NCBI GenBank assembly: GCA_965223505.1
Contig: CBDCWP010000007.1
Coordinates: 1-64,000, forward strand
Length of the DNA stretch: 64,000 nucleotides
Origin: Planctomycetota bacterium
GTDB taxonomy: Bacteria; Planctomycetota; PLA2; JAEUHO01
Direction of reading: 5' to 3'
In this document: in pieces, positions 6,064 through 58,051 of the stretch
How positions within the stretch are numbered: the stretch's first letter is position 1
How the letters are laid out: each line of letters opens with the position of its first letter
Translations under genes and position numbers: made by a program
Notes under the pieces: generated by a model
What the model saw: the letters and a program-made list of their open reading frames with translations, nothing else
What the model was told of the DNA's origin: nothing
The model's database searches: none

Positions 6064-6648
6064 CTATGCGCCGCCACGCCGGCGAAGCGCCAGCTCGTAG
6101 GTCTTCTTGAAGCGCTCCTGCGCCCGGAGCCGCGCCCGCTGGGCCGCGGCCGCGGTGATGTCGAGCCGCTCGGCCGTCTCGTCGATCGAGAGGCCGCGGC
6201 AGATCGCCTCTACGAGCTCGCGGTCGCGCGCGGGAAGGAGCGCCAGCGCACTGGTCGCGATCTCGAGCCGGGCGCGTCGGTCGGCGAAGGTGGCGGGCCC
6301 CGTGAGCCGCGCCTCCGGATTCACGCCGGAGCCGCTGCCGGGATCGGTCGTGTCCCCGAACGTCACGCGCAGCATGGGACCCGCGTTGCGCTTGAGCGCG
6401 CGCCAGTACGCGGTTCGATTCGCGATGTGCTGGCGGCCGATCGCACGGATCCAGCCCATGAACGCGGCGTCGCCCAGGTATTCGAACCGGTCCGCCACCC
6501 GCAACGCGTGCAACGCGGCACCCTGGGCCAGGTCTTCGGCGCTCTCGTAGCGCAGCAGCCCGGACCCCTCGCGCCGCAGGTGGCGCACCAACTCCGCGTG
6601 ATGCCGCTCGAGCAGCTCAGCGAGACTGGGCTTGGAAGCCTCGGCCAC
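6064..6648 (-). CDS. ECF RNA polymerase sigma factor
   Basis: SAEDLAQ, FMGWIRAI and region 4 GLSIDETAERLDITAAAAQRARLRA. Confidence 0.85.
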   Translation of the reverse strand: MAEASKPSLAELLERHHAELVRHLRREGSGLLRYESAEDLAQGAALHALRVADRFEYLGDAAFMGWIRAIGRQHIANRTAYWRALKRNAGPMLRVTFGDTTDPGSGSGVNPEARLTGPATFADRRARLEIATSALALLPARDRELVEAICRGLSIDETAERLDITAAAAQRARLRAQERFKKTYELALRRRGGA

Positions 6649-6657
6649 GCCCGCCCG

Positions 6658-9645
6658 CTACTCGAGGTCCCGGCGGCGAAAGACGAGTCGGAAGCCGCAG
6701 TCACCGCCGGCGTGCTCGGGATCGCGAGGGTGTCGCGCCGTGGTCGAGAACTCCCACCCCCGGCCCCGCAGCACGGATCCCCCGGCGGCCATGCCGCTGA
6801 AGCCTCGGGTGCCATCCCAATCCATCCACTCGATCACGCTGCCGCACAGGTCGTAGACGCCGGCCGGCGACTCGTCGATTGGAAAGCTCATCACGGGGTC
6901 GTATCCGCGAAACTCGTGTGTGACGTGAAGCGAGCTCACCCACTTGGGCCGAAACACGTCGCCGTGGGCGAAGCCGGCGAACGAGTTCCCGTGCGCGGCC
7001 CCGCGATACTCCTCGTGGGTCGGGATGCGATACGGCCTGCCGTCGCGCGCTCCCCGCCAGGCCGCGTACGCCTTCGCGTCGGCCAGATCGAGTCCCCGCA
7101 CCGGACGGTCGGGTCGCCACGTCGGCGGAAGCTCGAAACGGCCGTGTTCGTTGCGAATCCAGTGTCCGCCGGAGGCGGTGTTGAGCTGGTCGTCGCGTGG
7201 GTAGCGGATGTACCGGCCCTCTTCGAGGGCCGCGTCGATCTCCGCGAGGACCGCGGGGTCGTTGAGGAATTCGAGATACTCGGCGTTCGTCACCTCCCGC
7301 TCCTGCATCCAAAACGCGTCTTCGTCCGTACCGCGGACCGAGATGTAGACGAATCCCGGCGGCGTGGTCCCGATCGGGAGGGGCTTCAAGTCGTACCACT
7401 CGTCCCATCCGCCGCGGATCTTGCGCTGCAGGATCTGGTCTTCGTATCCCTTCCTGCGAAGGAGGAAGACATAGCGTCCGGGTTCGAGCGGATACGCTTC
7501 CGTCGGCGTGATGCCGATCCGGCTGCCGGGAGACGCGAACAGCGGCACGGCGGTCGTTCGTACGACGAGGCCGACCGGAAGCTGCATCTCGCGAACCACA
7601 CCGTCCTGGTAGACGCGGGCGGGCACGTTACCGCGCTCGGCGACGGCGGCCGCCGAGAGCACCTCGATGGGGGGCCGGTTCCAGCGCACCTCGAACTCGC
7701 GATCGTCCCTTGCGAAGACGTAGCGATGGGGACCGGGCGCGTCGGGCGGTCTGCCGTCGAGCATCAGCCGAATGCGACGCTTCCCGATGGCGACGAGGCG
7801 GTCCCCCCGGCGCACCTCGCCGTGCGAATCGGCGGCGAGGAAGGTGGCCTCGATCGGATGCCCGAACACCTCCAGAATCTGATCGCCCTGACGTAGATCA
7901 CCCGCGCCGCGCACGACACGAAGCGTCCACGTTCCCGGCAGGACCGGCGTCTCGCCGCGCACCGGCACCGGGACCAGCCGCCGGTCCCCGCCCGGGTCGA
8001 GGTCCCGCTGCACGTCGTGACGAAACGCGTGCAGCTCGAAACCCGCGGGGGTCGTGGACGCCCTGATCGAGCCGGACTTCAACAGCGCGCCGGTGTACCG
8101 CCCGTCGGGATCGTACTTGGCGATCTCGGCGCGATAGCGACGCACCGCCGCCTCGTTGGCCTGCGTGCGTGCTTCCTCCATGCGCTCCAACCAGAGCCGA
8201 GCCGTCACCTCGTCGACGCCGGGGACGTCGCGATCCCGTTGCTGCGCCTGATGCAGCAGCTCCAACACCCGGCTGAACATCAGGTCGCGCTCGGTGCCGG
8301 CCTTCTCACCCCGGTCCGTCATATCTTCCAGCTGACGGTCCTGCTCTTCGGTGGTGTGTCTGGACTCGTACCGCAGGAGCAGCTCACGAAAGCCCTCGTC
8401 GTAGTCCTTGCTGTCGATGCGCGCTTCTCGATAGTCGGCCAGCACCCCGCGCGCCCGCTCGACGAGTTGCAGCGCCTCCTGCCTCCGCTCGGCAGCTCGT
8501 TGCGCGCTGCCGTAGATCAGCAGCGCCACGATGGTCAGGACCGCGACCAGCAGGCCGGATACGGCGGTCGCCGTCACGGGTCTGCGACGTGTCCACTTTC
8601 GCAGCCGGGTGATCGGACCCGGTGCTCGCGCTCGGACGGGGCGCGATCGCGAGAGCGCCTCGAGGTCGTCGGCGAACGCCGACATGTCGTCGTAGCGCGC
8701 CGACGGCTTCTTCTCCATGGCCTTGAGGACGACGAGGTCGGCGTCGCGCGGCACGGATGGGTTGAGTCGCGACGGCGGCACGGCGTCTTCCAGCAACACC
8801 TGGCGGAAGACGCCTTCCAGCGTCTTGCCACGGAAGGGCAGGCCGCCCGTCACGCACTCGTACGCCGTGATGCCGAGCAGGTACACGTCGGTGCGGGCGT
8901 CGACGTCGCCGCCCTTGATCTGCTCGGGCGCGGCGTAGAGCGGCGAGCCCGCGAAGCTCTTGGTGAGGCGGGTGGCTTCGAGGCCGGTCATGTGGGCGAT
9001 GCCGAAGTCCAACAGCACGGCCCGGTCGTCCGGCGTGATGAGCACGTTGCTCGGCTTGACGTCGCGATGGACGATGCCCTGCTTGTGCGCGTACGCGAGT
9101 GCCCGGGCGAGCTGGGCCATCCACTGAAACAGGCGGTGGATGGGGATCGCGGTTCCTTCCTCGCGCAGGATCTCGGCGAGGGACCTGCCCGGAACGAACT
9201 CCATCGCGATGAACTGAACGTCCTGGTCCTCGGCGAGCTCGTAGACGCTCACGACGGCGGGGTGACGCAGCTGCGCGATCGCGCGCGCTTCGCGGCGGAA
9301 GCGCCGCAGCATGGTCGCCGAGGCGCCGAGCTCCGGACGCACGATCTTCAGCGCCACGATTCGACCGAGCGCCTCTTGCTCGGCCAGGAACACCGTTCCC
9401 ATACCACCCGTTCCCAGGCGGCGAACGAGTCGATACCCGCCGAGCCGCTCGAAGGGGAGTTCACCGTCGGCGTCGGACGACGCGGCGACGTACTCGCGAT
9501 GAAGCGCGTGGACGAGCTCGCGCATCTCGGTATCGACGTCGGGGTAGCGTGCGAGATAGAGATCGGGTTCTTCGGGACAACCGTCGAGGCAGGTCGCCAG
9601 ATACGCGTCGTAGACGTCCGTTGGATCGCGCGGGTCGGCGGCCAT
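6658..9645 (-). CDS. Membrane Ser/Thr protein kinase with C-terminal formylglycine-generating-enzyme (FGE-sulfatase) domain
   Basis: Start MAADPRDP. Kinase motifs LGTGGMGTV, VALK, HRDVKPSN, DFG and APEQ. One TM helix. FGE motifs EVTNAEYLEF, YRIPTHEEY, GVYDLCGSVIEW and GFRLV. Confidence 0.9.
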   Translation of the reverse strand: MAADPRDPTDVYDAYLATCLDGCPEEPDLYLARYPDVDTEMRELVHALHREYVAASSDADGELPFERLGGYRLVRRLGTGGMGTVFLAEQEALGRIVALKIVRPELGASATMLRRFRREARAIAQLRHPAVVSVYELAEDQDVQFIAMEFVPGRSLAEILREEGTAIPIHRLFQWMAQLARALAYAHKQGIVHRDVKPSNVLITPDDRAVLLDFGIAHMTGLEATRLTKSFAGSPLYAAPEQIKGGDVDARTDVYLLGITAYECVTGGLPFRGKTLEGVFRQVLLEDAVPPSRLNPSVPRDADLVVLKAMEKKPSARYDDMSAFADDLEALSRSRPVRARAPGPITRLRKWTRRRPVTATAVSGLLVAVLTIVALLIYGSAQRAAERRQEALQLVERARGVLADYREARIDSKDYDEGFRELLLRYESRHTTEEQDRQLEDMTDRGEKAGTERDLMFSRVLELLHQAQQRDRDVPGVDEVTARLWLERMEEARTQANEAAVRRYRAEIAKYDPDGRYTGALLKSGSIRASTTPAGFELHAFRHDVQRDLDPGGDRRLVPVPVRGETPVLPGTWTLRVVRGAGDLRQGDQILEVFGHPIEATFLAADSHGEVRRGDRLVAIGKRRIRLMLDGRPPDAPGPHRYVFARDDREFEVRWNRPPIEVLSAAAVAERGNVPARVYQDGVVREMQLPVGLVVRTTAVPLFASPGSRIGITPTEAYPLEPGRYVFLLRRKGYEDQILQRKIRGGWDEWYDLKPLPIGTTPPGFVYISVRGTDEDAFWMQEREVTNAEYLEFLNDPAVLAEIDAALEEGRYIRYPRDDQLNTASGGHWIRNEHGRFELPPTWRPDRPVRGLDLADAKAYAAWRGARDGRPYRIPTHEEYRGAAHGNSFAGFAHGDVFRPKWVSSLHVTHEFRGYDPVMSFPIDESPAGVYDLCGSVIEWMDWDGTRGFSGMAAGGSVLRGRGWEFSTTARHPRDPEHAGGDCGFRLVFRRRDLE

Positions 9646-9879
9646 GCGAACAGGATATCGCATCCGCGACTGCCGGGCGGGGGACCCGGTCCGAACGCAA
9701 TGACCCGCCGTCCACGTCGAGCGGCCACGCCGCCGGCACAGCCGAGTGCACGGCAATTGCGGAAGAAACCGACGCCGCCAATCAAAGCTGCGGCAAGAAG
9801 CACAGCCGTGGGTCGAACTCGCGGATTGGCGGCGAAAAGTCACTCGCTCGTTTGCGCCCAGGGGTGTGGAATATACGAG

Positions 9880-12597
9880 ATGGCGCTGACCTCCACCTTC
9901 AGCCGCCGCGTGAGCGTGGCGGTCGCCGGATGCCTGGTCGCCGCCGCCGCCTGTGTCGCGTGGGAGCTCTTCACACCGGAGGAGTGGGAGGCACCCGCCG
10001 AGATACGCATCGGGACGGCACGCGAAGGCGGCGCCTACCTGCCGATCGGCAACGCCTTCAAGCCCATCCTCGAACGCGAGTTCGAGGGGTCGTCCGTCTC
10101 GGTGCACGCGACGGGCGGGAGCGTCGCGAATCGTCTGCTCCTCGAAGACGGGCTGCTCGAGCTCGCGATACTCCAGAGCGACGTCGAACCGAGCGACAAG
10201 GTTCGCATCGTTCGTCCATTGCACGACGAGTTCCTGCAAATCGTCGTGAACACCGATGCCATCGCCGACGCGAAGTCGATCGTGGACCTGAAAGGCACAC
10301 GCATCTCCGCCGGACCGAAGGGCAGCGGCTCGCGGCGCCTCGTCATGGATCTGCTCACGTGGTACGACGTCGAGCTCGAGCTCGACGATGTGGCCAGCCC
10401 CGCGGAAGAGCAACGGCGCCTCCTGGCCGGTGAGATCGCGGCGATCTGTCGCGTGGCCGGTAGTCCCGACAACTTGATCAAAGAAATTCTGGAAGACGAC
10501 CGGATGACCTTGATTCCGGTCGAGCCGGGAACGGATGACAAGGCGCCTCGGAGGCTCGACGCATTCGGCGGCCCCAATCTCTTCGAGCCGGTCGAGCTGC
10601 CGAATTCGTACAGGCGGCAACCTCCGGGTCTCTGGACCGTGAACGTCACGGCGCTCTTGGTGGCGCATGCCGATCTCGACGACGGCTTCGTCTACGCATT
10701 GGCGAAGCTCTCGAAGGACGATCTCGCCGAGATGCGCAAGGACAAGAGTGTGCGCGTCCATCTCGGCGAGCTGCGGCCTTGCGAGGACGACTACAGTCAT
10801 CCGTACCACCACGGCGCCAAGGCATTCCACGAAGGGCAAAGCGTGGCGCACTCGGACCTGCTGGCTTGTCTGATGCGCCTGGGGCTCGCGGCCGTGTTCG
10901 CTGTGCTCGCGGTGGTCCTCTTCACGCGCGAGTTCCGACGCGTGCGTCGCATGAAGGCGTACGAGCGTAGCGTACCGAAGGGCGACCTCGACCCGTCGAA
11001 ACCGTTCGACCTCTTTCTCTCTTACAGCTCGCGCAGCAAGCGGGCGCGCAACGCCGTGAGGGTCATCGCCGAGGAGTTCGAGCCCGAGGTGACGTGCTGG
11101 TACGCACCCCGCAATGTCGCCTTCGGCGACGAGTGGACGGAGGGCATCGCGAACGCCATCGCGAGAACGCAGCAGGCGCTCGTCTTGATGTTCACGAAGG
11201 AGGCGTGTCGATCGAAGCACATCGCGCGCGAGCTACGACTCGCCGACAAACGCGACCTTAGAATCCTGCCGTTCTGGATGGAAGATGCGGAACCGTCGGT
11301 CTCCGACAACAAGGTCATCTACACGCTCGCGGGCCTTCAGCGCATCGACGCGTCGGGCCCGCGTGACGTCGCCATCCGAGCCCTGCACGACGCCGTTCGA
11401 CGGCCCGCGTCTCACGAGGATCTGCTTCCCGACCCTGTGATCCTCAAACGTCGCTCGGCTCCTTGGATGGTAGGCGCAGCCGCCGTCCTGTTGCTCGCGC
11501 TGTTTCCGCTGTGGAAGCCGTGGACGAAAGACGCCGTCGTCGAGGCGCCGGGGCCCGCGTTGACAAAGCCGGAACGCGAACAGCTGCTTCTCGGACAGCT
11601 CATCTACGAGTGGGCGTTCGAGGGCCAGCGCCCGGGTGTCACGTACGAGGTCCGTCGTACGAACGGTCGCGAGACCGCCACCTCCGAACGAATCAGCGTG
11701 TCCGCCTTCGAGGAACGGGCGCTTCACGGGACGATCAAGTGGCAGGTGCGAGCATTCGTGCCGGGATCGGACGGCGAGGTCGTCGCCACCGCGTGGTCCA
11801 CGCCGTCTCGCGTCGAGTTCTACAAAGACACGCTGCAGAAGATACGGATGCGGGGCGAGGTCGTCGTCGCCATCAGTGACGTGGTGAATCGCAAGAGAGA
11901 GGCCAATCCGGAGCTCCGTCTCATCGATCTTGCACTCAACACGGATCCGAACGAGAAGGTCCTCGTGTTGTATGAAAGCCGGTCGTTCGCCGACCTGAGC
12001 GGTTTGTTCAAAGGAGACGAGGCAGCCGAATTCGACGTCATGGCCGCTCGAATCTCGATCCGCGAGGACCGTGTAACGGGGCCCAACGCGTGGCGCGTCG
12101 CGTTCACCGACCCGCTGGATCAGTATCCACAGGCGTTCGTGTACCTTCCCGACAAGCAGCTGTGTGTCGGCCCCAATGCGTCCGGGCCCTGCCGTGTCGG
12201 TGTCGTCGAGGGGACGACGAACGAGGCGTTCATGGACGAGCTCCTGGCGGCGCGGAAACCGGAAGGCGCCGAGGTGGTCACGTTCACGGGCAGGACCCAC
12301 GTATACAAGCGGATGTACAACGCGTTGCGCGCGGGAGAGCTGGACCTCTTGACGGTCGACCGACCGTTTGCCGTACAGCTGCAGAAGGAGGCTGCGCAGA
12401 AAGACGACGTGACGCTTGCCGTGAGCACCGTCGACCAAGTTCTGCCGAGTCCGCCGCGGGACGAGAGGATCGCGCTCGCGGTCAAGTCGGCCGATCAACG
12501 CCTTCGCGACCGACTCGACGCGGCACTGAAGGAGCATCGCGCCGAGATCGATCGGATGTTCGACGAGCTTCAGCCGCGACCGATGCTGATCGACTGA
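9880..12597 (+). CDS. Multidomain membrane protein: TAXI-type solute-binding domain - TM - TIR domain - TM - family 3 solute-binding domain
   Basis: TAXI motifs IGTAREGGAYLPIG, TGGSVAN, AILQSD and GPKGSGS. TIR motifs FDLFLSYSS, CWYAPRNVAFGDEWTEGIANAI and SKHIARELRLA. C-terminal ISIREDR...FTDP...VGVVEGTTNE...LRDRLDAAL. Confidence 0.8.
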   Translation: MALTSTFSRRVSVAVAGCLVAAAACVAWELFTPEEWEAPAEIRIGTAREGGAYLPIGNAFKPILEREFEGSSVSVHATGGSVANRLLLEDGLLELAILQSDVEPSDKVRIVRPLHDEFLQIVVNTDAIADAKSIVDLKGTRISAGPKGSGSRRLVMDLLTWYDVELELDDVASPAEEQRRLLAGEIAAICRVAGSPDNLIKEILEDDRMTLIPVEPGTDDKAPRRLDAFGGPNLFEPVELPNSYRRQPPGLWTVNVTALLVAHADLDDGFVYALAKLSKDDLAEMRKDKSVRVHLGELRPCEDDYSHPYHHGAKAFHEGQSVAHSDLLACLMRLGLAAVFAVLAVVLFTREFRRVRRMKAYERSVPKGDLDPSKPFDLFLSYSSRSKRARNAVRVIAEEFEPEVTCWYAPRNVAFGDEWTEGIANAIARTQQALVLMFTKEACRSKHIARELRLADKRDLRILPFWMEDAEPSVSDNKVIYTLAGLQRIDASGPRDVAIRALHDAVRRPASHEDLLPDPVILKRRSAPWMVGAAAVLLLALFPLWKPWTKDAVVEAPGPALTKPEREQLLLGQLIYEWAFEGQRPGVTYEVRRTNGRETATSERISVSAFEERALHGTIKWQVRAFVPGSDGEVVATAWSTPSRVEFYKDTLQKIRMRGEVVVAISDVVNRKREANPELRLIDLALNTDPNEKVLVLYESRSFADLSGLFKGDEAAEFDVMAARISIREDRVTGPNAWRVAFTDPLDQYPQAFVYLPDKQLCVGPNASGPCRVGVVEGTTNEAFMDELLAARKPEGAEVVTFTGRTHVYKRMYNALRAGELDLLTVDRPFAVQLQKEAAQKDDVTLAVSTVDQVLPSPPRDERIALAVKSADQRLRDRLDAALKEHRAEIDRMFDELQPRPMLID

Positions 12598-12632: not shown

Positions 12633-14105
12633 ATGCGAGAGGGGGGCGACGGCACCGGCGGGCGCAAGCGGCCCGGATGGGCGCTCGTGAACTGCTGGGC
12701 GCTCTTCTCGGGCTCGTCCCTGTTCGCAACCGCCGTCGCGCTGGATCTCACCGAAGAGAAGTCCGTCGCCGGACAGGTGTTCGATGCCGAGAACGTCACG
12801 CTCGCCGCCTGGGCGACGGCCATCGCGCTGAGCGTGACAGGCACCGTGCTGTTTCTCATCTGGCTGTATCGTTGCTGGAGCACGGTGCCCGCCGCGGATC
12901 GCAGGTGCTCGCCCGGCGCCGCCGTCGGACTGCTCTTCGTTCCGCTCTTCAACTTGTACTGGATCTTCGTCGCGATCGTCGGGCTCTCGAGCTCGCTCGG
13001 CAGGTCGTTCGGCAGGCAGTACGCCCGTCCGCCGGGGCTCAAGCTCGCGCGCGCCGTTTGCATCTTCACGATTCTCTTCGGTCTGCTCGGTGTCGTGTGC
13101 ACCGGGCTCGAGCTGATTCCCTGGGTGCTGTTGGTCGCCTGGGTGTGTGTGACCAACGACGCGAAGAACCGCCTCTTGTCCGGCAGCCCGGCCGAGCCGC
13201 AGACGGCGCGCTCCGTCGACGCAATCTGGATCGTCGTCGGCGGCGTGGCCGCGGTCGGCTGCGCGGTCGTTCCGCTGGGCATGTTGTCCGAGACCGAGAC
13301 GGAACTGCACTGGTTCTGGTCGGCGATCCTCGAAGGCTCTGCGCTCGACGGCCTGCTGGCATCGATGCCCGCAGCTGTGGGCCTGCTCGCGGTGTTGATG
13401 GTTCGCAGCCTGCCGCCGCGTGTCGTCGGTGTCGCCGTGTCGGCGCTTGCCGTCGGTACGATTGTTGTCAGCCGGCTCTTCTCGTCGCACCGCGCCAATG
13501 ACCTCGGCCTGCTGGAGTTCGCGGCGCTCGTCGGCGCGTTCGTCGGCATTGCGGTCGCCCGCTCCGGAGCCTCGAAACGCGCGCGCCGAACGGGCGCGAC
13601 CGTCTGCGCAGCAAGCGCGGCCATCGGACTCGCGCTCGTCCTCCTGCCGCGACAGGCGATGGATGACCAGCACAGCTTGGTGCTCGGGCCGTACTTGCAG
13701 CACTTCGAGACGACCGCGACCGATCCGTTGCTTCGTGAGGTCGCTCGGTTCCAGGGGCCGCGCCGGATCCACTTCGCGTATCCGTTGAGGCTCGACGACC
13801 ATGAGTTCACGGATGTGAACTTCTTCGGCCTCGTCCGTCGGCTCCTGGAGGCCGTCTTCTTCACGGCTTGTCTCGCCGGATTCAGGCGATCCAGGACGCG
13901 ATTCACGTGGATCTGGCCGCTCGGGGTGCTGGCGCTGGCGGTGATTCCGTTCCAGAGCTGGTTGCTCAAGGAAGCGGTCGCCGTACAGGGCATGCTGCCG
14001 TTCTCCGGCACCTTGCAGCTCAAGGCGTACTTGCTGGCCGCGGGCGTCGGATTGTTGCTCTGGCGCGGACTGACCGTCTGGATTCGCGAGGCGAGCGAAT
14101 TCTGA
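12633..14105 (+). CDS. Polytopic membrane protein, DUF4328-like N-terminus
   Basis: Many hydrophobic helices. FLIWLYRCW...SPGAAVGLLFVPLFNLYW motif. Confidence 0.55.
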   Translation: MREGGDGTGGRKRPGWALVNCWALFSGSSLFATAVALDLTEEKSVAGQVFDAENVTLAAWATAIALSVTGTVLFLIWLYRCWSTVPAADRRCSPGAAVGLLFVPLFNLYWIFVAIVGLSSSLGRSFGRQYARPPGLKLARAVCIFTILFGLLGVVCTGLELIPWVLLVAWVCVTNDAKNRLLSGSPAEPQTARSVDAIWIVVGGVAAVGCAVVPLGMLSETETELHWFWSAILEGSALDGLLASMPAAVGLLAVLMVRSLPPRVVGVAVSALAVGTIVVSRLFSSHRANDLGLLEFAALVGAFVGIAVARSGASKRARRTGATVCAASAAIGLALVLLPRQAMDDQHSLVLGPYLQHFETTATDPLLREVARFQGPRRIHFAYPLRLDDHEFTDVNFFGLVRRLLEAVFFTACLAGFRRSRTRFTWIWPLGVLALAVIPFQSWLLKEAVAVQGMLPFSGTLQLKAYLLAAGVGLLLWRGLTVWIREASEF

Positions 14106-18808: not shown

Positions 18809-18890
18809 CAGGGCCTGATCGCGAATCTCTCGGCACGGGCGGCCCACGATTGGGGGCTCCCCGCGGACGCGGCGGTATCCTGATCGCCAG

Positions 18891-20582
18891 ATGACCGCGC
18901 GTGCGCCTCGCTACCTCCTCCAGTTCGACACCTACGGACTGCCGCACCATCTCGCAGATGTCCTGGTGATCGGTACGGGCGTCGCCGGCTACAGCGCCGC
19001 GCTCGCCGCGGCGGACGCGGGCGCGCGCGTTCTCGTCGTCGCCAAGGGCGACCCGCTGCTGAGCAACACGGCATGGGCGCAGGGAGGCATCGCGGCGGTA
19101 CTCCCCACGAGCCCGGACGACTCGGCCGACCAGCACGCGCAGGACACGTGCGACGTGGGCCAGGGCCTGTGCGATCGGGACCTCGTACTCGACATCTGTC
19201 GCGACGCCGCTGCGAGCATCGAGGCGCTGCGGGCGTGGGGCGCCACGTTCGACGTCGGCGACGGCGAGAACGAGGACGGAGTGGCGCTCGGTCTCGAAGG
19301 CGGGCATCGCGTTGCGCGCATCCTGCATGCCCGAGGTGATGCCACGGGCGCCGAGATCCGCGACACGCTCGCCGCGGCCGCACAAGCGAACGAGCGCATC
19401 GAAGAGTGGGGCGGCACCTACGTCGTGGATCTGCTGACCGACGGCGACGGCCGCTGCCTCGGCGCGCTCGCGCTCGTCGACGGCCGGCTGCGAGCCATCT
19501 GGGCCGGCGCGGTCGTGCTCGCCGCCGGCGGCTACGCCCAGATCTTCCAGGAATCGAGCAATGTGCCCGGCGCCACCGGGGACGGCATCGCGATCGCGTA
19601 TCGCGCCGGCGCGGTCGTGCAGGACATGGAGTTCGTGCAGTTCCACCCGACGACGCTCTATCTGGCCGGTGTGCCGCGGCTGCTCATCACCGAGGCGGTT
19701 CGCGGCGAGGGCGCGCACATCATCGACGATCTCGGGCGCCGCTTCCTCACCGACGTGCACGAGCGTGCCGAGCTCGCGCCGCGCGACGTCATCTCACGCG
19801 CGATCATGAAGCATCTCGAACGCTCGGATGTGGACGGTGTGTTCCTGGACCTCACCCATCTCGACGCGTCGCACATGGCGCGGCGCTTCCCGGGCGTCGT
19901 CAACTCGTGCCGTGCGCACGGTCTGGACATCTCCACCGACCGCATACCGATTCGTCCCGCCGCCCACTACTCCATCGGCGGCGTGCGCACGGACCAGCAG
20001 GGCGCCACCTCGTTGAGCGGTCTCTACGCCGCCGGCGAGGTCAGCTCGACCGGACTCCACGGCGCCAACCGACTCGCGTCGAACTCGCTGCTCGAGGGGC
20101 TGGTCATGGGCAGGCGCGCCGGCGCGGGCGCTTCGAAGTACGCTGCCGAACAGGTCTCGAAGCCGGCGAAGCTGACCGGCGCCGGAACCGGCAGCCAGAC
20201 CACCGGGTTCCTCGACGTGAACGACCTGCGCGTGTCGCTCAAGGCGCTGCTTTGGCGCGAGGCCGGGATCGAGCGGAGCGCAGGCAACCTGACCGGCGCC
20301 GCCGCCGCGGTGCGGGGTTGGGAGGAGTTCGCGCGACGGGTCGTCGGCCAGGCGGGCGTGCACCGCCTCACGCTGCTGAACATGCTCTGCGCGGCGCGAT
20401 TGATGACCGAGTCCGCGTTCATCCGGGAAGAGAGCCGCGGAACGCACTACCGCCGCGACTTCCCCGATCGGGACGACGAGCACTGGACGGTTCACATCAC
20501 GCATCAAGCGGACGAGGCCGTACCGGACCTCGTGCCGCTGGTCGCCGCGGGTGGAGCGGTGCCCGCGGGGGAGCGCGCATGA
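18891..20582 (+). CDS. nadB: L-aspartate oxidase
   Basis: IGTGVAG, WAQGGIAA, EFVQFHPT, LITEAVRGEG, ELAPRD and GLHGANRLASNSLLEG. Confidence 0.95.
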   Translation: MTARAPRYLLQFDTYGLPHHLADVLVIGTGVAGYSAALAAADAGARVLVVAKGDPLLSNTAWAQGGIAAVLPTSPDDSADQHAQDTCDVGQGLCDRDLVLDICRDAAASIEALRAWGATFDVGDGENEDGVALGLEGGHRVARILHARGDATGAEIRDTLAAAAQANERIEEWGGTYVVDLLTDGDGRCLGALALVDGRLRAIWAGAVVLAAGGYAQIFQESSNVPGATGDGIAIAYRAGAVVQDMEFVQFHPTTLYLAGVPRLLITEAVRGEGAHIIDDLGRRFLTDVHERAELAPRDVISRAIMKHLERSDVDGVFLDLTHLDASHMARRFPGVVNSCRAHGLDISTDRIPIRPAAHYSIGGVRTDQQGATSLSGLYAAGEVSSTGLHGANRLASNSLLEGLVMGRRAGAGASKYAAEQVSKPAKLTGAGTGSQTTGFLDVNDLRVSLKALLWREAGIERSAGNLTGAAAAVRGWEEFARRVVGQAGVHRLTLLNMLCAARLMTESAFIREESRGTHYRRDFPDRDDEHWTVHITHQADEAVPDLVPLVAAGGAVPAGERA

Positions 20583-49965: not shown

Positions 49966-50922
49966 CTACTCGTCGCCGGCTGGGATCGGCGAGATCAGCC
50001 GGAAGCCGGCGTGCGGGAGCTTCGTGTCCGGCACGAATCCGGTCCGGTGTCCAGACGCGAGCGCGCTCGGGCTGCCGCTCCAAGCCCCGCCGCGCATGAC
50101 GCGCGTAGGCGGGTCCAGCTCCTCGCCTTCGAGGTGGTCGCAGAGCTCCCAGACGTTGCCCGCCATGTCGTAGAGCCCCCACGCGTTGGGCGCGTAGCTC
50201 GCCACGTGGGCGCTCACCATGAACCCGTCGTCGCGCTGCCAGTGTCTTCGCTCGGCCGGCCACGAGGCCTTTGCGTAGCCCGAGATCCCGAAGACGGATT
50301 CCGATTTCGGATCGAGACCGTTGGCGTACTTCCAACCGTCCGCCGACACGTCGCCCCAGAAAAACCGCGTCGAGGTGCTCGCGCGACACGCTCGCTCCCA
50401 CTGGGCTTCGGTCGGCAGCCGGTAGGAACGCTTCGGGTCGCGGTCGGACACCCATCGGGCGAACACGCGTGCGTCCTGCCACGAAACGCGCACCACGGGC
50501 TGTTCGTCTTCGTCCAACGTGTATCCGTCGTGAAACGTCTTGCTGTCGTGGGTGGGGCGCATGCGCCGGAACTGGGCGTTCGTGACTTCCGTGGCCTGCA
50601 TGTAGAACGGTCGTTCGATCGTGACGTCGCGTTCGGGTGCGTCGCGACATCCGCCACCGGGATCACCCTTGGGCAGTCCCATGCGAAACGAGCCGGGAGG
50701 GATCAGGACGAAGCGCATGCCGAGGCTGTTTTCGAAGGACACGGGGACGCCGTACTGCTTGGCGGCCTCGAGCTGTGCGGGGGCCGGCTCGGGCCATGGC
50801 GGAGGGCGGGAGGGGCGCATGGCGGGCGTGGGCGGCGCGTGTCGTTGCTTCGGCTGTTCGTCGCCGCACGCTGCCAGCAGCGCGAGGAGTCCGAGGGCGG
50901 TGGCGACGCGTGTCCGGTTCAT
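49966..50922 (-). CDS. Formylglycine-generating-enzyme family lipoprotein
   Basis: Lipobox LAAC. NSLGMRFVLIPPGSFRMG, RLPTEAQWERACRA, PNAWGLYDMAGNVWE and GFRL. Confidence 0.9.
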   Translation of the reverse strand: MNRTRVATALGLLALLAACGDEQPKQRHAPPTPAMRPSRPPPWPEPAPAQLEAAKQYGVPVSFENSLGMRFVLIPPGSFRMGLPKGDPGGGCRDAPERDVTIERPFYMQATEVTNAQFRRMRPTHDSKTFHDGYTLDEDEQPVVRVSWQDARVFARWVSDRDPKRSYRLPTEAQWERACRASTSTRFFWGDVSADGWKYANGLDPKSESVFGISGYAKASWPAERRHWQRDDGFMVSAHVASYAPNAWGLYDMAGNVWELCDHLEGEELDPPTRVMRGGAWSGSPSALASGHRTGFVPDTKLPHAGFRLISPIPAGDE

Positions 50923-51009
50923 CGAGGGGGAGCATACCCTCGAGGCGGTGGCTTCTCTTGAGGGGTATTCGAACGCCTGATAGGGTCACCCGCCGCTACG
51001 GCGAAAATG

Positions 51010-51949: not shown

Positions 51950-52643
51950 GACAGTCTGGTGCGCATTGGTGGTTGTCGTAACGCTCGTCGTGTCAGCACC
52001 GCAGGTAACGACACCACGCAAAGGAGGAACGACGTGACCCACCACGAACAGCGTACGCCTTGGGGCGACGCACTGGAAGCGCTCAGCGAGAACGGGTTCG
52101 ACGGCATGGCTGAGGCGATGCGGGTGCTGGTGAACGAGGCCATGAAGGTCGAACGCAGTGCCTTCCTCGGCGCCGAGCCCCACGAACGCACGGATCAGCG
52201 CCGCGGCTACGCCAACGGCTTCAAGCGCAAGCGCGTCAGAACCCGCTTGGGCGAGATCGACGTCCAGGTGCCCCAGGTTCGCGACGTCGAGGGCGGCGAC
52301 ACGTTCTACCCCTCCAGCCTCGAACGCGGCCAGCGAAGCGAGAGAGCGCTCACGCTGGCCCTGGCGGAGATGTACGTCCAGGGCGTCTCGACGCGGCGTG
52401 TCGAGGCGATCACGAAGGTGCTTTGCAACGGCCTGGAGATCAGCTCCACGAGCGTGTCTCGAGCAGCTGCGCTGCTCGACGAGGAGCTCGAGCGCTGGCG
52501 CACACGTCCGCTCGGCGCGTTCAAGTACCTCGTACTCGACGCTCGCTACGAGAAGGTGCGCCACGGCGGATCGGTGCGCGACTGCGCTGTGCTGATCGCC
52601 ATCGGCGTCGATTCTCACGGCAAGCGCAGCGTGCTGGGAACGG
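51950..52643 (+). mobile_element. IS256-family element remnant (5' part of the transposase)
   Basis: GTG at 52034 after AGGAGG. RRGYANG, PQVRD, EMYVQGVSTRRV and LDARYEKVR, then similarity ends after KRSVLG. Left boundary is approximate. Confidence 0.85.
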
Positions 52644-53191
52644 CTGCAATCTCCGATGAGATCACGCTTGAGTTCGACGTTGACATCACTGAGAAGTTCG
52701 GCGGGTTCGTGGGCGGCCCTGACACCGCTACGCTCTCGATCACGTTCGACACCAGCATTGGGATCAGCATCGAATCAGACCCTGTCGGGACTCTGGCCCA
52801 GTACAAGGAGGCCGTTGCTGGAGACTCTATTGACTGGCTGATCACGTACGACGGTACGGATTACAGCCGCAATGCGACCGAACTTGCAGCGATTCAAGTT
52901 GAGAACGACAACCCGCTCGATGAGATCAAGCTGATCTCCGGAGAGGGTCTGCACATCAGCGTGAAGAACTTCGACGCCGATGCGATCAGTGGGATCGGGT
53001 TGCCTACAACGCTGGATACTGATGACTGGGCAACGACTTTCTTTGAGTTCGAACTCTTCAACGAGTCGGGCGTGGTGACGGATCGCATTCGGGGGACGCT
53101 CACCACGGTAATCCCCGAACCCACATCCCTCGCCCTCCTCGGCCTCGGCGTAGCCGGACTTGCGTGGCGGCGTGGGCGCGCGCGGGACTAG
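52644..53191 (+). pseudogene. PEP-CTERM protein lacking its own start/signal peptide, fused in frame to the IS256 fragment
   Basis: Acidic beta-rich body ending VIPEPTSLALLGLGVAGLAWRRGR. Confidence 0.8.
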
Positions 53192-53193
53192 AC

Positions 53194-53628
53194 ATGGCGA
53201 AGCAAGGTCCGAAGGGAATCCATTTCACTTCACTGCCTCTTACTGAGCCCCCGCCTCACTTCATTCCCGATCTAGTTGGCGTGTTCAAGGCGCACCGCAG
53301 TGAGATCTCAACGGAGGAACTAGAGAAGGGACTGACCAGCGATCAGGTGCTTGCAGTCCTGGGGGACGACCTACGCGAACTCGGGTTCGAGGTAGAGCGC
53401 AGCAAGGCCAAAGCTGACAAGATCGAGCGCCCCGTCTTCTTCGGTGAGGATGGGGTGCCCACACTTCGGTACGAGATCGACGCGTATCACGCTGACTGGC
53501 AATGCGCTCTCGAGGTAGAGGCCGGCCGCGCGTGGATGGGCAACGCTGTATATCGAGACCTCATCCAGGCGGCTGTGATGGTCGGCGTGAAGCACCTGTG
53601 CATCGGCGCTTGGACCTCGAACTTCTGA
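53194..53628 (+). pseudogene. Putative PD-(D/E)xK restriction-endonuclease-like protein truncated by an IS3 remnant
   Basis: EIDAYH...LEVEAGRA...N...RDL resembles a nuclease core. Sequence switches to IS3 orfB DNA at about 53604. Confidence 0.5.
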
Positions 53629-54379
53629 TCGAGCGTGTTCGGCGCTATCGGCAGCGTGTGCTTCGAGTCCGTCGTTCGCCGCCAACGGCGTTTCAGGCGC
53701 GCTGAGATGCCGTTCTTGCGGATCAGGCGCGCCACGCGGTGAACGCCAACCGGCCGCTTCCGTGACTTGAGCTCGGCATGGACGCGCGGACTTCCGTACG
53801 TGCCCCGACTCTCCCTGTGGATCTCGCGGATCTCCCTCACGAGCCGCTGGTTGTCGATCGTGCGTTTGGACGGCGGCCTGGTGCGCCAGGCGTAGAAGCC
53901 GCTGGGCGAGACGCCCAGCAGCAGCTCGGATCGGCACGTTGGCCTTCCCCGCCTCGATCAGCTCGAAGGCTTCGAGCTCTCCTCCCTGGCGAAGAAGGCT
54001 GCGGCTTTTTTCAGGAAGTCCCGCTCCATCCGGAGCCGCTTCACATCCCGCTTGAGCTGCCGCACTTCGGCTTTCTCCGCGGTGGTTAGCGCCTCCGGAG
54101 GACCCTCCCCTGCATCGACCTCAGCCTGCTTGACCCAGTTCCTCAGCACGTTCGGGTGGATGTCCAGATCCCGCCCGACCCTCGCGTAGTTCCCAACGGC
54201 CTTGTAGAGCCGGACGGCCTCCGCCTTCTGCTGGGCCGTGAACGTGCGCTTCTTCCTCTGTCCCATCGGTATACTCCTCGACCAGTATCCTACTCCGCAG
54301 GGTAGGAAGGATGGGATCTCGGCATCGTGGGATCTTTCCACCCCCACGGGTAGGTGTCCACGAAACCGGGTCAACTCCA
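53604..54379 (-). mobile_element. IS3-family element remnant (IRL, orfA, truncated orfB)
   Basis: IRL TGGAGTTGACCCGGTTTCGTGGACAC from 54379. orfA 54266-53958 (RTFTAQQKAEAVRL...LRNWVKQ...MERDFLKKAAAFF) with an A6G run at 54005-54011. orfB start GVSPSGFYAW...TYGSPRVHAEL...TTDSKH...APNTL. DDE domain and IRR missing. Confidence 0.9.
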
Positions 54380-54382
54380 GAA

Positions 54383-55567
54383 CTACTTGGCTCCAGTCTC
54401 AGGCCACATGCCATCGAAGTGCTTCATCGCAAACTCACGAATCACCCTCTCGACTTCCTTCGCATGACGCTCAACCACTCTCACGTTCTTTTCAGAGGCA
54501 CTCTCGCGCAAAGTAGAACCGGGCTGTAGCCACGCGTTTTCGACAGTCTTGCGAACTGCCTGTCTTGAGGGCGCCAGCGCTCGCTCGCTCTCTACGAGCT
54601 TGGCAATGTCTTCTCGAGCCGCCGGCGTATCGAAGACAGTCTGGGCAAGTCGATCGGTCGCCTCGCTCAACCGCTTGTCGCTCAATGAGCCTGCTGAGCA
54701 CTCATTGAGCAGCCCCACTCCTCGGAAGACATGCAGAGCCCTGAAGAAGCGGTCAGATTCACGAAGCTGCGGATCCAAGTCAGGCGTGGCCAGTATCGTA
54801 TTGATGCGCTCTTTCCACTCAACCTGCTCAAGTTCGACGCTCCGACGCGTGAGTGTGGTCTCAGCGCCGGTCGACTCGGACCGGGCACGGGCAGAGAAGA
54901 GAAGACCTGTCGAACGATCAAATACCAGTTCGGCTCGTTTGGAGGAGAGCACTACTCGCTTCTTTGCTTCGTCTACGCGGACTGACTTGGTCGCGAACAG
55001 CTCTCGATCGAGCCAGCGAGCTGGATGCCCTTCACCAACGCCGAGGCCCCACTCGTATGAAGTCGTATCATCGGCTGCCTCATCAATGAGAATCTGCACG
55101 TAGGTCGAGTGGCGCTCCATCTTCAATCTTGGAAGTTTCCAGTCCCTACAGATCTCGTCTAGAGTCGTTTGCACTCGCTTGACCTGCTTGTTCAACTCAT
55201 TAGGCCCTCGGCAGGAGTAGACTGCCGTGCCGTTCGCCAGGCTCACAAAGCGTGAGCCATTGCCAGCAGACCATAGGGTCGTGAGTTTGCCTTCTCCTCG
55301 CAGTCGAAGATAGGCGCCCGTGAGGTCCCCGCTCCTGAAGAGCTCTCCGAGCCCCTCCCTTGGTTCGACGAACGCCAGACTGCCCGGCGTCATCTCCAGC
55401 CTGTAGGCGATGTGCAGTTCCGCCTGTCTGTCAACACTGGCCTGCAGCTGCTTTCGTAGCACCTCGGAGCTGCGAGCGCCTTCCTCAGCATTGGCAGTAC
55501 CAGCGACAATCAACGTGAGGACTAGCAACGCTCGCCGATACATGGCCAACATGATACTCGCGAGCAA
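54383..55567 (-). CDS. Secreted hypothetical protein (island cargo, atypical codon usage)
   Basis: Signal peptide RRALLVLTLIVAGTANA. Visibly more AT-rich third positions than flanking genes. Exact start uncertain. Confidence 0.6.
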   Translation of the reverse strand: MLASIMLAMYRRALLVLTLIVAGTANAEEGARSSEVLRKQLQASVDRQAELHIAYRLEMTPGSLAFVEPREGLGELFRSGDLTGAYLRLRGEGKLTTLWSAGNGSRFVSLANGTAVYSCRGPNELNKQVKRVQTTLDEICRDWKLPRLKMERHSTYVQILIDEAADDTTSYEWGLGVGEGHPARWLDRELFATKSVRVDEAKKRVVLSSKRAELVFDRSTGLLFSARARSESTGAETTLTRRSVELEQVEWKERINTILATPDLDPQLRESDRFFRALHVFRGVGLLNECSAGSLSDKRLSEATDRLAQTVFDTPAAREDIAKLVESERALAPSRQAVRKTVENAWLQPGSTLRESASEKNVRVVERHAKEVERVIREFAMKHFDGMWPETGAK

Positions 55568-55789
55568 ACGCGCCCCTCAACCCGTCAACTCCGCGACTGG
55601 CTGGCGGTACTAGAGAATTGGGAGCTAGCGTCCAAGTTCGCTAGGATGGTTTGCCGAAGCATGCGCTCGGAGGGTCGTTGATCTTCGCCGGGACTGGGCT
55701 TATCCCACACGCATGAGCTTCGCGCCCGGTGCCGCCCAACCTGCGGATTCCGGCGCCGCCCCGGCTACGCTGGCGTTTGGAGACCCAGC

Positions 55790-57886
55790 GTGAAGCGCCT
55801 GATCCGATTCCTCCCCCTGCTCGCCGTCGCGGCCGTGCTCAACGTCGCGTTCGTCGGGGACTTCATGCGCTCGACGCTCCCCGAACGCAGGCCCGCGCCC
55901 GCCGCCGATGCCGACACCGTGCCTCGCGTCGTCGTGCTCGGGTTCGACGGCGTCGACGCCCGCATGCTGCAGGCGTACATCGACGCGGACCAGCTGCCCG
56001 CCCTGGCCTCGCTCGCGCGCGACGGCGCGTTCCATCCGCTCATGAGCGAGATCCCGCCGGAGTCGCCCGTGGCCTGGGCGAGCCTGATGACCGGCGTCAA
56101 CCCCGCGCGCCACGGCGTCTACGACTTCGTCACGCCCGGCCCGGGTTACGAGCCCCAGAACGGGATGGTCGACATCCGCCGCGCGCGCCTGCTCTTCGAC
56201 CGCGTCCCCTTGCGTGCACCGCGCGTGCGCTCGCGCCTCCGCGCCCCGACGTTCACCGAGCTCGTTCGCAATGCGGGCTACTCCGTTCTGGCACTACGCC
56301 AGCCCTTGCTCTTCCCGGTGCCCGATCGTCCGGGTGCGCACATGACCCCCGGACTGGGCACACCCGACGTTGCCGCATCCTCCGGATTCGGCACGCAGTA
56401 CTCCGCGGCCCTCGGGTTCACGTCCGGCGTGACGACGTTCGGCACGTATCGCGTCCCGTTGCCGGTCGCTCCCCCGGATGAGCGGTACGACACGCTGCTC
56501 TACGGACCCTACGACCCGAGCTTGGGCCGCAACGCGCGTGGCGGCCGTCGGCGCGCGTCGGTTCCGCTGCGTTTCGAGGTGCGCGCGGACGCACGCGTTC
56601 GCATCACGCTGGCCGGGGTCGTACAGGACGTACGTGTCGGCGACCGCAGCGACGTCTTCTCCGTTCGCTTCGAGCTCGGGTTGATTCCGAGTCGATCGGT
56701 CGACGGCGTCGTGCGATTCGAGGTGAAGAGCGTCGATCCCCTGAAGGTGCTCGCCGATCCCGTCAACTTCGATCCGCGCAACGCCCCCTTCCCGCTCTCG
56801 ACACCCGACGACTACGGCGCGAAGCTCTGGAACACCTACGGGCCCTACGAGACGGTCGGTTGGCAAGAGCAGACGATGCCGCTGAACGACCGCTTTCAGA
56901 GCGACGAAGACTTCCTGCGCGACCTGCTCGAGGACATGGACCGCGGCGGCGGCATCCTGATGGGGGAACTGGCGCGCAATGACCGCTGCGTGTTCGCCTG
57001 CTTCACCGCGACCGACCGGGCGTGCCACGGTTTCTATCGCTACCGCGACTTTGGTCATCGCCTCCACGACGACCGAAGCAAGAGTCTCGACGATCCCATC
57101 CTGCAGGTCTTCCGGAAGATGGACACGATCGTCGGCGCCGTGAGAGCACGACTCGACAAGGACGACCTGCTGTTGATCGTCTCCGATCACGGCTTCCAGA
57201 CGTGGCGCTGGGCGGTCAACATCAACCAGTGGCTCGTCGACGAGGGCTACATGGTGTTGAAAAGCGACGCCGAGGAGAAGGGACTGGCGCCGTTCTTCGG
57301 CGGCGAGACCGGCGTCGACGTCGTCGACTGGTCGAAGACGCGGGCGTACGGCCTCGGTCTCGGGCAGATCTACCTGAACCTACGCGGCCGCGAAGAGCAG
57401 GGCATCGTGGATCCCGAAGACGCCCGCGCTCTCTCCGCGGAGATCCGCGACAAGCTTCTCGCGATTCGCAACCCCTACGTCGATGACGCCCGTCCGGTCG
57501 AGGGCGCCGACACGCCCGTCACGTCGCGCGCGGTCGAGACCGTGACGCTGCTGGCCGACGTCTACGACGGACCCTTCGCGAGCGAAGCGGCCGAGATCCA
57601 GGTCGGGTTCGCGCCCGGCTATCGTGTGTCGTGGCAGACCGCGCTGCTCGGGGGCATGGCCAAGAGCGGCGACGTGTTCGAGTACAACGACGTGGCATGG
57701 TCCGGCGATCACTGCAGCACGTCGCGCGACCGGGTTCCCGGTGTCTTGCTCGTCAATCGCAAGGTCGCGCGGCCTCGCGACGACCGGCCGTATCACGTAC
57801 GTGACGTCGCCGCGACGGTGCTTCGCCACTTCGGCCTTCCGACGGGTGAGCTCGACGGTGTGCCGGTGACCTTCCCGGCGGACTGA
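55790..57886 (+). CDS. Alkaline phosphatase superfamily / type I phosphodiesterase-like protein
   Basis: VVLGFDGVD, PPESPVAWASLMTG, HGVYDF, TDRACH, VSDHGF and WSGDH. Confidence 0.88.
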   Translation: MKRLIRFLPLLAVAAVLNVAFVGDFMRSTLPERRPAPAADADTVPRVVVLGFDGVDARMLQAYIDADQLPALASLARDGAFHPLMSEIPPESPVAWASLMTGVNPARHGVYDFVTPGPGYEPQNGMVDIRRARLLFDRVPLRAPRVRSRLRAPTFTELVRNAGYSVLALRQPLLFPVPDRPGAHMTPGLGTPDVAASSGFGTQYSAALGFTSGVTTFGTYRVPLPVAPPDERYDTLLYGPYDPSLGRNARGGRRRASVPLRFEVRADARVRITLAGVVQDVRVGDRSDVFSVRFELGLIPSRSVDGVVRFEVKSVDPLKVLADPVNFDPRNAPFPLSTPDDYGAKLWNTYGPYETVGWQEQTMPLNDRFQSDEDFLRDLLEDMDRGGGILMGELARNDRCVFACFTATDRACHGFYRYRDFGHRLHDDRSKSLDDPILQVFRKMDTIVGAVRARLDKDDLLLIVSDHGFQTWRWAVNINQWLVDEGYMVLKSDAEEKGLAPFFGGETGVDVVDWSKTRAYGLGLGQIYLNLRGREEQGIVDPEDARALSAEIRDKLLAIRNPYVDDARPVEGADTPVTSRAVETVTLLADVYDGPFASEAAEIQVGFAPGYRVSWQTALLGGMAKSGDVFEYNDVAWSGDHCSTSRDRVPGVLLVNRKVARPRDDRPYHVRDVAATVLRHFGLPTGELDGVPVTFPAD

Positions 57887-58051
57887 GCCTCGCTGGATAC
57901 CTGTTTTCCATTCACTCCGCGTGCATACTTCGTTGCCGGGACGACCGTCCTCAACCAGGCCGCGGAGCCCATACTTTGGGGCGCTCGGCGGAGTTCGCGA
58001 TGTCAGTCTACGCCTGTGGAAGACGCCGATCTCGGCGATCGCGAGGTCCGC

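Follow-up and report, generated by a model that had tools for sequence, protein, structure and literature searches.

The window analysed in this study is the whole 64,000-nucleotide stretch (positions 1 to 64,000, forward strand) of contig CBDCWP010000007.1 from a Planctomycetota bacterium (GenBank assembly GCA_965223505.1). It harbours a gene for a predicted membrane receptor in which a TIR domain is flanked by two different solute-binding domains. The gene and the parts of its product are given below, with residue numbers (aa), transmembrane helices (TM1 to TM3), lysine plus arginine counts (K/R) and, as model confidence, the predicted local distance difference test (pLDDT).

9880..12597, + strand: receptor gene, encoding a 905-aa three-pass membrane protein with the order TAXI, TM, TIR, TM, beta domain, solute-binding protein family 3 (SBP3)
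9916..9972, + strand: predicted TM1 or signal anchor (aa 13-31), preceded by SRR; Kyte-Doolittle hydropathy 2.11, two K/R before and one after, model helix at aa 9-31
10009..10830, + strand: predicted periplasmic TAXI-type solute-binding domain (aa 44-317), from Pfam, NCBIfam, PDB and Foldseek matches
10867..10923, + strand: predicted TM2 (aa 330-348), followed by TREFRRVRRMKAYER; hydropathy 2.53, seven K/R after and none before, model helix at aa 323-364
11005..11400, + strand: predicted cytoplasmic TIR domain (aa 376-507), from Pfam TIR_2, a family profile and a domain model
11230..11232, + strand: codon of Glu451 in the motif ARELRLA, the glutamate at the catalytic position, invariant and aligned with that of known TIR domains
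11455..11511, + strand: predicted TM3 (aa 526-544), preceded by ILKRR; hydropathy 1.88, three K/R before and two after, model helix at aa 529-540
11557..11823, + strand: predicted periplasmic all-beta spacer (aa 560-648), with strands at pLDDT about 90-96
11830..12570, + strand: predicted periplasmic family-3 (polar amino acid type) solute-binding domain (aa 651-897), from profile, fold and residues

The same order of domains had been set out in an earlier note made from the sequence alone, and the Pfam, NCBIfam and fold matches agree with it. The two internal transmembrane segments of that note (10879-10923 and 11464-11514) match the computed ones (10867-10923 and 11455-11511), and the motifs FLSYS, W...I..AI and ARELRLA that it had read are all present in the translation.

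The open reading frame (ORF) begins with an ATG at 9880 and its stop codon ends at 12597. The GC content of the window is high (0.61-0.74), with many long spurious frames. The frame of the receptor gene stays open upstream to 8017, the stretch before 9880 overlaps the divergent kinase gene, and the aligned relatives begin where the ATG at 9880 sits. GC content at third codon positions was 0.82, the same in all three thirds of the gene, and was 0.85 in the neighbouring kinase gene. Two overlapping open frames of about 1520 codons each were observed on opposite strands (6658-11220 on the - strand and 8017-12597 on the + strand), each being a real gene plus a long stop-free antisense extension. 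Such extensions are typical at this GC content and are a trap for ORF-based gene calling. An assembly chimera, which the earlier note had named among the results that would refute its reading, was rejected. The full layout recurs in independent sequences that are 32-37% identical, and is therefore neither a product of chance nor a chimera.

The TIR assignment of the middle domain, also made in the earlier note, was borne out by the Pfam TIR_2 profile (PF13676), which matched aa 379-495 with an E-value of 1.7e-10 and 41.9 bits, over the curated cut-off of 28. A profile built from 13 TIR segments of the family (alignment A4) matched TIR-STING (4e-10), Cat1 (1e-8) and AbTir (1.5e-6), and also TLR6, TLR1, Hydra TRR-2, Roq1, PdTIR and SPARTA TIR-APAZ. 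The model of the isolated domain was confident (pLDDT 92.4, predicted template modelling score (pTM) 0.87). Its best structural match was AbTir 7uxu, a filament with a substrate analogue, at a template modelling score (TM-score) of 0.72/0.75; the next matches were MyD88 (TM-score 0.71-0.72), SARM1 (0.71-0.76) and the SPARTA TIR domains.

Trp407, Ser445 and Glu451 are invariant in all 25 TIR-bearing relatives. Glu451, the conserved glutamate to which the earlier note had drawn attention, aligns with the glutamate of TIR-STING, Cat1 and TLR6 in the A4 profile, and with that of AbTir in the alignment of the target. TIR-STING, Cat1 and TLR6 share an S-x-W-C-x-x-E stretch, with a tryptophan four residues ahead of the glutamate. 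The prediction of a two-copy TIR complex from A4 scored 0.00 against a mark of 0.42, a value that bears neither way on self-association. We infer that the receptor TIR may cleave NAD+.

Hydropathy places the TIR domain between two membrane helices, and the positive-inside rule favours the cytoplasmic side for it, as first proposed. The 15 residues past TM2 carry seven K/R and none lies ahead of the helix, and the charge bias around TM2 and TM3 has the same sense in the relatives, where it is clearer than in the target. A cytoplasmic TIR domain would be the topology that fits these charge counts. The full-length model had a mean pLDDT of 86.6 and a pTM of 0.49, so that the individual domains are reliable but their mutual placement is not. 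The pLDDT fell below 50 at aa 364-370 and 511-530, which suggests that the linkers on either side of the TIR domain are flexible tethers.

The first periplasmic domain was matched by Pfam NMT1_3 over aa 44-317 (E 3.8e-30) and by NCBIfam TRAP_TAXI (TIGR02122) with 117.4 bits, above the cut-off of 84.35. A sequence search of the PDB matched 8s4j (E 5e-13), and Foldseek gave TMt values of 0.78-0.79 against 4ddd, 9ibo, 8s4j and 1us4, the closest being glutamate-binding TAXI proteins. The ligand contacts of VcGluP listed in the available portion of PMC11574862 were mapped onto the receptor via the 8s4j alignment. Six of the nine are kept (Y45, S75, Q93, H123, E125 and G156), including both key contacts, Y45 and Q93.

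The second periplasmic region consists of the beta spacer and the family-3 domain. The spacer stands ahead of the SBP3 domain in all relatives that have it, and W578, G617 and W639 are conserved among them; no Pfam match and no significant PDB sequence match was found for it. The segment had been described as Ig- or FN3-like. A confident all-beta domain does lie at aa 560-648, but its likeness to FN3 or Ig is one of secondary structure only, and no sequence search names it. For the family-3 domain, Pfam SBP_bac_3 (PF00497) gave 18.8 bits over aa 705-889 of the target, below the cut-off of 26.4. In four full-length relatives the scores were 27.4, 28.0 and 29.6, which pass the cut-off, and 25.9. 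NCBIfam TIGR01096 gave a weak match to binding proteins of the LAO/HisJ type (E 2.3e-11). A family-3 profile matched AncCDT-1 (E 1e-27) as well as ArtJ, HisJ and LAO, the target domain alone matched HisJ-like chains (E 7e-6), and the fold was recovered by Foldseek with TMt values of 0.66-0.72 against amino-acid binding proteins. The sub-threshold Pfam score is made good by the agreement of the family profile, the HisJ-like matches and the fold. The equivalents of HisJ Arg77, Thr121 and Asp161, which we take to hold the alpha-amino and alpha-carboxyl groups of the ligand, are R731 (23/23 sequences), T780 (22/23) and D827 (23/23). Residues of this kind are kept in both periplasmic domains, and the ligands are most likely amino acids or compounds closely related to them.

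When 1.84 billion cluster representatives were searched exhaustively with HMMER, 10,112 matches were returned at E <= 0.001, 14 of them at E <= 1e-30. The best 150 of the 10,112, the target included, and one match from a word index were classified, 42 of these 151 proteins with Pfam and all of them with domain hidden Markov models (HMMs) from alignment A1 and a hydropathy scan. The layouts were distributed as follows.

5/151: the full layout TM-TAXI-TM-TIR-TM-beta-SBP3, in the target and in P0005-P0008, which are 32-37% identical to it over the whole length
2/151: TAXI-TM-TIR, in P0009 and P0011
19/151: TIR-TM-beta-SBP3, to which P0045 adds an OpuAC domain
2/151: TM-beta-SBP3 behind another cytoplasmic domain, a Ser/Thr kinase in P0093 and an NMT1-TM-ATPase-TM sandwich in P0118
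1/151: kinase-TM-TAXI, in P0038

The remainder were mostly TAXI proteins or multi-TIR proteins. That Ser/Thr kinases and a STAND-like ATPase carry these sensor modules too speaks for a receptor with a role in signalling. The TIR domain is the best-conserved part of the receptor family, and the TIR domains of the full-length and TAXI-TIR forms make up one clade (SH-like approximate likelihood ratio test 98) in a quick tree, the careful search being unfinished. P0009 is identical to a gene in a Pirellulaceae genome (locus L001). P0011 (561 aa) has a third membrane helix, ends two residues past it and nests among the full-length forms in the quick tree. It may, for these two reasons, be a cut-off record or a split gene and not a true short form. 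P0118 (1238 aa) runs from an NMT1 binding domain through a TM, an AAA/STAND-like ATPase and a second TM to a beta domain and SBP3.

Sixty of the 151 proteins are TAXI proteins that are anchored at the N-terminus, have one or two more membrane helices and share a conserved tail of about 100 aa in the cytoplasm (for example P0018, P0020, P0025, P0029-P0031 and P0036; loci L004-L053). These apparently orphan, membrane-anchored TAXI proteins could be receptors themselves.

The word-index homologue search with the target recovered just the target itself and one match of 15% coverage, and the matches to alignment A2 were limited to P0005 and a TIR protein from an animal; the family came to light through the exhaustive search. 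A related-locus search with alignment A3, the pattern of which fell within the TAXI domain, fetched 61 loci, the genome of the window not being among them; 60 of these held plain TAXI relatives and a TIR domain was present in L001 only. A tblastn search of plasmids with the TIR-to-SBP3 part gave an ordinary ABC binding protein only, and the Protein Atlas held no usable match for the receptor or for the protein encoded downstream of it.

A wider class of membrane TIR proteins was found when a profile of 18 TIR-TM-beta-SBP3 proteins was run against the word-indexed collection, giving 132 proteins at E <= 1e-20, of which 117 were new. Most of the new proteins (88/117) have a TIR domain, one membrane helix and a tail or ectodomain. 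A TIR domain followed by several helices was found in 19/117, the TIR-TM-beta-SBP3 layout in 4/117, helices ahead of the TIR domain in 3/117 and no helix in another 3/117. By these counts, the TIR subtype of the receptor as a rule makes up the cytoplasmic end of membrane proteins whose outer portions vary. The names in the source were generic, such as 'toll/interleukin-1 receptor domain-containing protein' and 'ABC-type amino acid transport substrate-binding protein'. An unnamed ectodomain is common to 69 of the 94 single-pass TIR relatives whose tail is 100 aa or longer (P0160-P0272). It consists of a Pro/Ser-rich linker and then a duplicated repeat with a G-x-W...V-D...Y-x-x-T-W-P pattern, and the single-pass TIR relatives that carry it are a large uncharacterised membrane TIR family.

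The surroundings of the receptor gene were also annotated, and its nearest neighbours and one further gene are given here.

6064..6648, - strand: extracytoplasmic function (ECF) sigma factor; the best match, below the cut-off, is a Planctomycetaceae-specific subfamily
6658..9663, - strand: Ser/Thr kinase fused to an FGE-sulfatase-like domain, 1001 aa, divergent upstream gene
9664..9879, no strand: divergent intergenic region of 216 nt between the receptor gene and the Ser/Thr kinase-FGE gene
12633..14105, + strand: polytopic membrane protein of 490 aa, starting 36 nt past the receptor stop, with a weak DUF4328 match only
18819..20582, + strand: NadB, L-aspartate oxidase, TIGR00551 at 503.6 bits against a cut-off of 452.75

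No sigma-70-like promoter and no Rfam match was found in the 216-nt intergenic region. The terminator-like sites near the receptor gene fall inside coding sequence, and the repeats around it are only short and chance-like. The gene for the downstream polytopic protein, which had no NCBIfam or Atlas match and belongs to no transporter family by these searches, is possibly co-transcribed with the receptor gene; a YjbQ-like gene comes next. The remaining genes of the window are housekeeping genes (SecDF, YajC, MnmA, FolD, NadB, RND efflux, sulfatases), and no second TIR, TAXI or SBP3 domain was found in it. NadB, which catalyses the first step of de novo NAD synthesis, starting from an amino acid, is encoded 6 kb downstream of the receptor gene. 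Its proximity to a putative NAD+-cleaving, amino-acid-sensing receptor is probably coincidental. Sulfatases lie at 57887-61086 and a second FGE gene at 49966-50985; together with the kinase-FGE and ECF sigma factor genes they point to a planctomycete-like host. The GC content falls to 0.61-0.63 at about 52000-56000, where an HTH_21 (transposase-type) ORF is present (53487-53957, - strand); this stretch is a possible insertion sequence remnant. A link of the receptor to the kinase and ECF sigma factor genes, the divergent transcription of which the earlier note had pointed out, was rejected. The arrangement is not conserved in the one other locus seen, that of the Pirellulaceae relative, where the neighbours are an FHA-GAF histidine kinase, a receiver protein and an M28 peptidase.

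The receptor had been called Toll-like. The order ectodomain, TM, TIR of its N-terminal half is indeed alike, and its family TIR profile matches the TIR domains of TLR6 and TLR1, but no leucine-rich repeat (LRR) match was found and there are three hydrophobic segments, so that the likeness is an analogy of layout and not one of membership. Unlike in the Toll-like and IL-1 receptors, the ectodomains are solute-binding proteins and not LRR or Ig domains, three membrane passes and a second ectodomain are present, and the commonest relatives have an N-terminal TIR domain. The layout was most likely assembled independently of the animal Toll-like receptors (TLRs) and IL-1 receptors.

The TIR fold and the aligned glutamate are shared with AbTir, TIR-STING, Cat1, SPARTA TIR-APAZ and Thoeris ThsB. 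These NAD+-cleaving enzymes (NADases) are cytoplasmic, are triggered by nucleotides, nucleic acids or phage cues, and are found in defence loci, whereas the receptor is membrane-embedded, has periplasmic small-molecule sensors and no defence context, and carries His in place of Trp. The principle proposed here, a TIR NADase governed by a metabolite-binding domain in the same protein, is likewise that of SARM1, the TIR domain of which was among the best structural matches. The sensor of SARM1 is a cytoplasmic ARM domain that reads nicotinamide mononucleotide and NAD+, and those of the receptor are periplasmic binding proteins. In the BvgS and EvgS sensor kinases, family-3-type binding domains are similarly joined via a membrane helix to a cytoplasmic output, and the EvgS periplasmic domain was among the Foldseek matches of the receptor. 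Their output is a histidine kinase and both flytraps are on one side of a single TM, in contrast to the receptor, which has two unlike sensors and, between them, a TIR domain as the output.

The nearest printed precedent, as far as the accessible text of PMC7159879 goes, is the caspase-TM-PBP protein (PBP, periplasmic binding protein) of 'System 4' described by Kaur, Burroughs, Iyer and Aravind in 2020, in which a cytoplasmic effector is joined via TM helices to an extracellular PBP. There the effector, a caspase, has an EACC1 gene as its partner and is found mainly in actinobacteria, and no TIR-PBP form is mentioned in that text. The TAXI proteins VcGluP and BP0403 (membrane-anchored or multi-domain forms) have the TAXI fold and several glutamate-contact residues in common with the receptor, the TAXI domain of which is, unlike theirs, fused to a TIR domain and has no TRAP or GltS partner nearby. 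The words 'TIR' and 'kinase' are absent from the available part of PMC12344293, and the word 'periplasmic' from that of the TIR survey PMC7075850. The earlier note had not recognised the layout as described, and the literature search, which covered sources other than subscription journals and supplements, likewise found no printed description of a bacterial TIR domain fused to solute-binding domains. The TAXI-TIR-SBP3 membrane design is rare and apparently undescribed.

We favour the explanation that the protein is a membrane receptor gated by ligands, with the TIR domain as its output, and we give the full chain, NAD+ cleavage included, roughly even chances of being right. It starts from the observed parts, their order and recurrence, the conservation of Glu451 and of the ligand contacts, and the occurrence of these sensor modules with other signalling domains as well. 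The protein would be a three-pass inner-membrane receptor, the N-terminal anchor of which would place the TAXI domain in the periplasm; TM2 would bring the chain back to the cytoplasm, where the TIR domain would sit, and TM3 would lead it out again to the beta spacer and the family-3 domain. Each periplasmic domain would close around a small molecule, most probably an amino acid or something closely derived from one, and its occupancy might alter the packing of receptor molecules in the membrane. Since short flexible linkers tie the TIR domain to both helices, altered packing could shift the contact between TIR domains. Activation by assembly is established for SARM1, AbTir and other TIR enzymes. 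By analogy with these, assembled TIR domains of the receptor might cleave NAD+ via Glu451, which would lower NAD+ or yield an ADP-ribose-derived signal. Activation of the receptor by assembly, like any downstream target, is putative.

Several results weigh against this explanation. The target TIR alone matches solved TIR domains weakly (E about 0.2). TLR6 carries the aligned glutamate too, and this residue is therefore necessary but not sufficient as a sign of catalysis. The tryptophan four residues ahead of Glu451 is never present in the family, the position being held by His in 15, Gln in eight, Leu in one and Tyr in one of the 25 sequences. The relative placement of the domains in the full-length model is unreliable, as its pTM shows, and the window has neither a second TIR domain nor a gene whose product would read an ADP-ribose signal. 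At the TAXI domain, three VcGluP contacts are changed in the target (D157 to S, Y200 to R and M201 to V), and Y45 is widespread in TAXI proteins, being found in 78% of the alignment in the available portion of PMC11574862. Because of these changes and the wide occurrence of Y45, the kept contacts do not settle the ligand of the TAXI domain.

The receptor might instead use its TIR domain as a non-enzymatic scaffold or adaptor, as in TLRs and MyD88, the ligand recruiting or releasing a cytoplasmic partner without any cleavage of NAD+. To our knowledge, the TIR domains of TLRs are scaffolds of this kind. MyD88 TIR filaments match the TIR model as well as the enzymes do (TM-score 0.71-0.72), and the matches of the A4 profile to TLR6, TLR1 and Hydra TRR-2 as well as the missing tryptophan would be in keeping with such a role. 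A Ser/Thr kinase can stand in for the TIR domain on the same sensor module, and the output need not, therefore, be metabolic. The glutamate is, however, kept in 25/25 sequences that are otherwise 21-35% identical to the target, which fits catalysis better, and no candidate TIR partner was found in the window. The bacterial TIR domains assayed to date are, as far as we know, NADases, and a scaffold was considered unlikely. Many bacterial TIR proteins work in defence, and the periplasmic domains could report an envelope or infection cue on which the TIR domain would drain NAD+ and growth would stop, as in an anti-phage or abortive-infection effector. At the level of the TIR domain, weak PADLOC matches were found in 19 of 25 family members (SAVED-TIR, best 3e-11, and PDC-S66, with pAgo-associated TIR in 12), and the caspase-TM-PBP protein of a conflict system (PMC7159879, available part) is a printed precedent. 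The receptor protein itself matched 0 PADLOC families, no ThsA, cyclase or pAgo, as would go with the known anti-phage TIR systems (Thoeris, CBASS/SAVED-TIR, SPARTA, Pycsar), was found in the window, and the role in immunity raised in the earlier note gained no support. The genes around its own are housekeeping or regulatory ones (SecDF, YajC, MnmA, FolD, NadB, kinase, ECF sigma factor) with no defence or mobile genes close by, the Pirellulaceae relative is also found among non-defence genes, and the binding domains carry amino-acid-type contact residues. A defence effector thus appears quite improbable.

Alternatively, the protein could be two binding proteins tethered to the membrane that pass their ligand to a transporter encoded at a distance, with the TIR domain as a regulatory or vestigial insert. 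Both binding domains come from families associated with transporters, membrane-anchored TAXI proteins have been published (a reference in the accessible text of PMC12344293), and a polytopic membrane protein of no known family follows the receptor gene. No DctM or DctQ and no ABC permease or ATPase was found among the 42 ORFs of the window that were scanned, and a nearby fused TRAP membrane component, which is a trait of TAXI family members, is not present. The absence of an adjacent permease, stated in the earlier note, was thereby reproduced for recognisable TRAP and ABC types, but it is weak evidence. As a control, 23 of the 61 fetched loci were chosen and two dropped for size, leaving 86 ORFs of at least 380 aa in 21 TAXI loci; DctM was present within about 5 kb in only four of these loci and in none of the other 17. 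In this branch TAXI genes are often orphans, and a missing permease near the receptor gene consequently says little. The conservation of the TIR domain, which exceeds that of the other parts and includes the invariant glutamate, the use of the same sensor modules on kinases and an ATPase, and the lack of any transporter family match for the downstream protein all speak against a transport role, which we regard as very improbable.

Bacterial TIR domains are so far known to us either as components of phage defence that cleave NAD+ in the cytoplasm or as virulence factors that are secreted. If the favoured explanation is true, a TIR domain under periplasmic sensors would show that TIR chemistry also serves ordinary environmental sensing, and the receptor would be a simple system in which the control of a TIR enzyme by an extracellular ligand could be tested. 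The modular family, in which one sensor is found on a TIR domain, a kinase or an ATPase, would offer natural chimeras for the study of flytrap switching in single-pass receptors. The receptor-TM-TIR layout has counted as an animal and plant theme, and the receptor bears on the origin of this layout. More speculatively, and with a probability that we put at the low end, the receptor and the larger set of membrane-anchored TIR proteins might be a class of bacterial surface receptors in which extracellular amino acids, glutamate for example, gate NAD+ cleavage or an ADP-ribose-derived messenger that controls growth or dormancy. The amino-acid cue would then perhaps be released by damaged neighbours or mark the nutrient state. 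Such receptors would be a functional counterpart of the TLRs that reads metabolites, outside phage defence, and the two unlike sensors flanking one TIR domain would let the cell combine two ligands.

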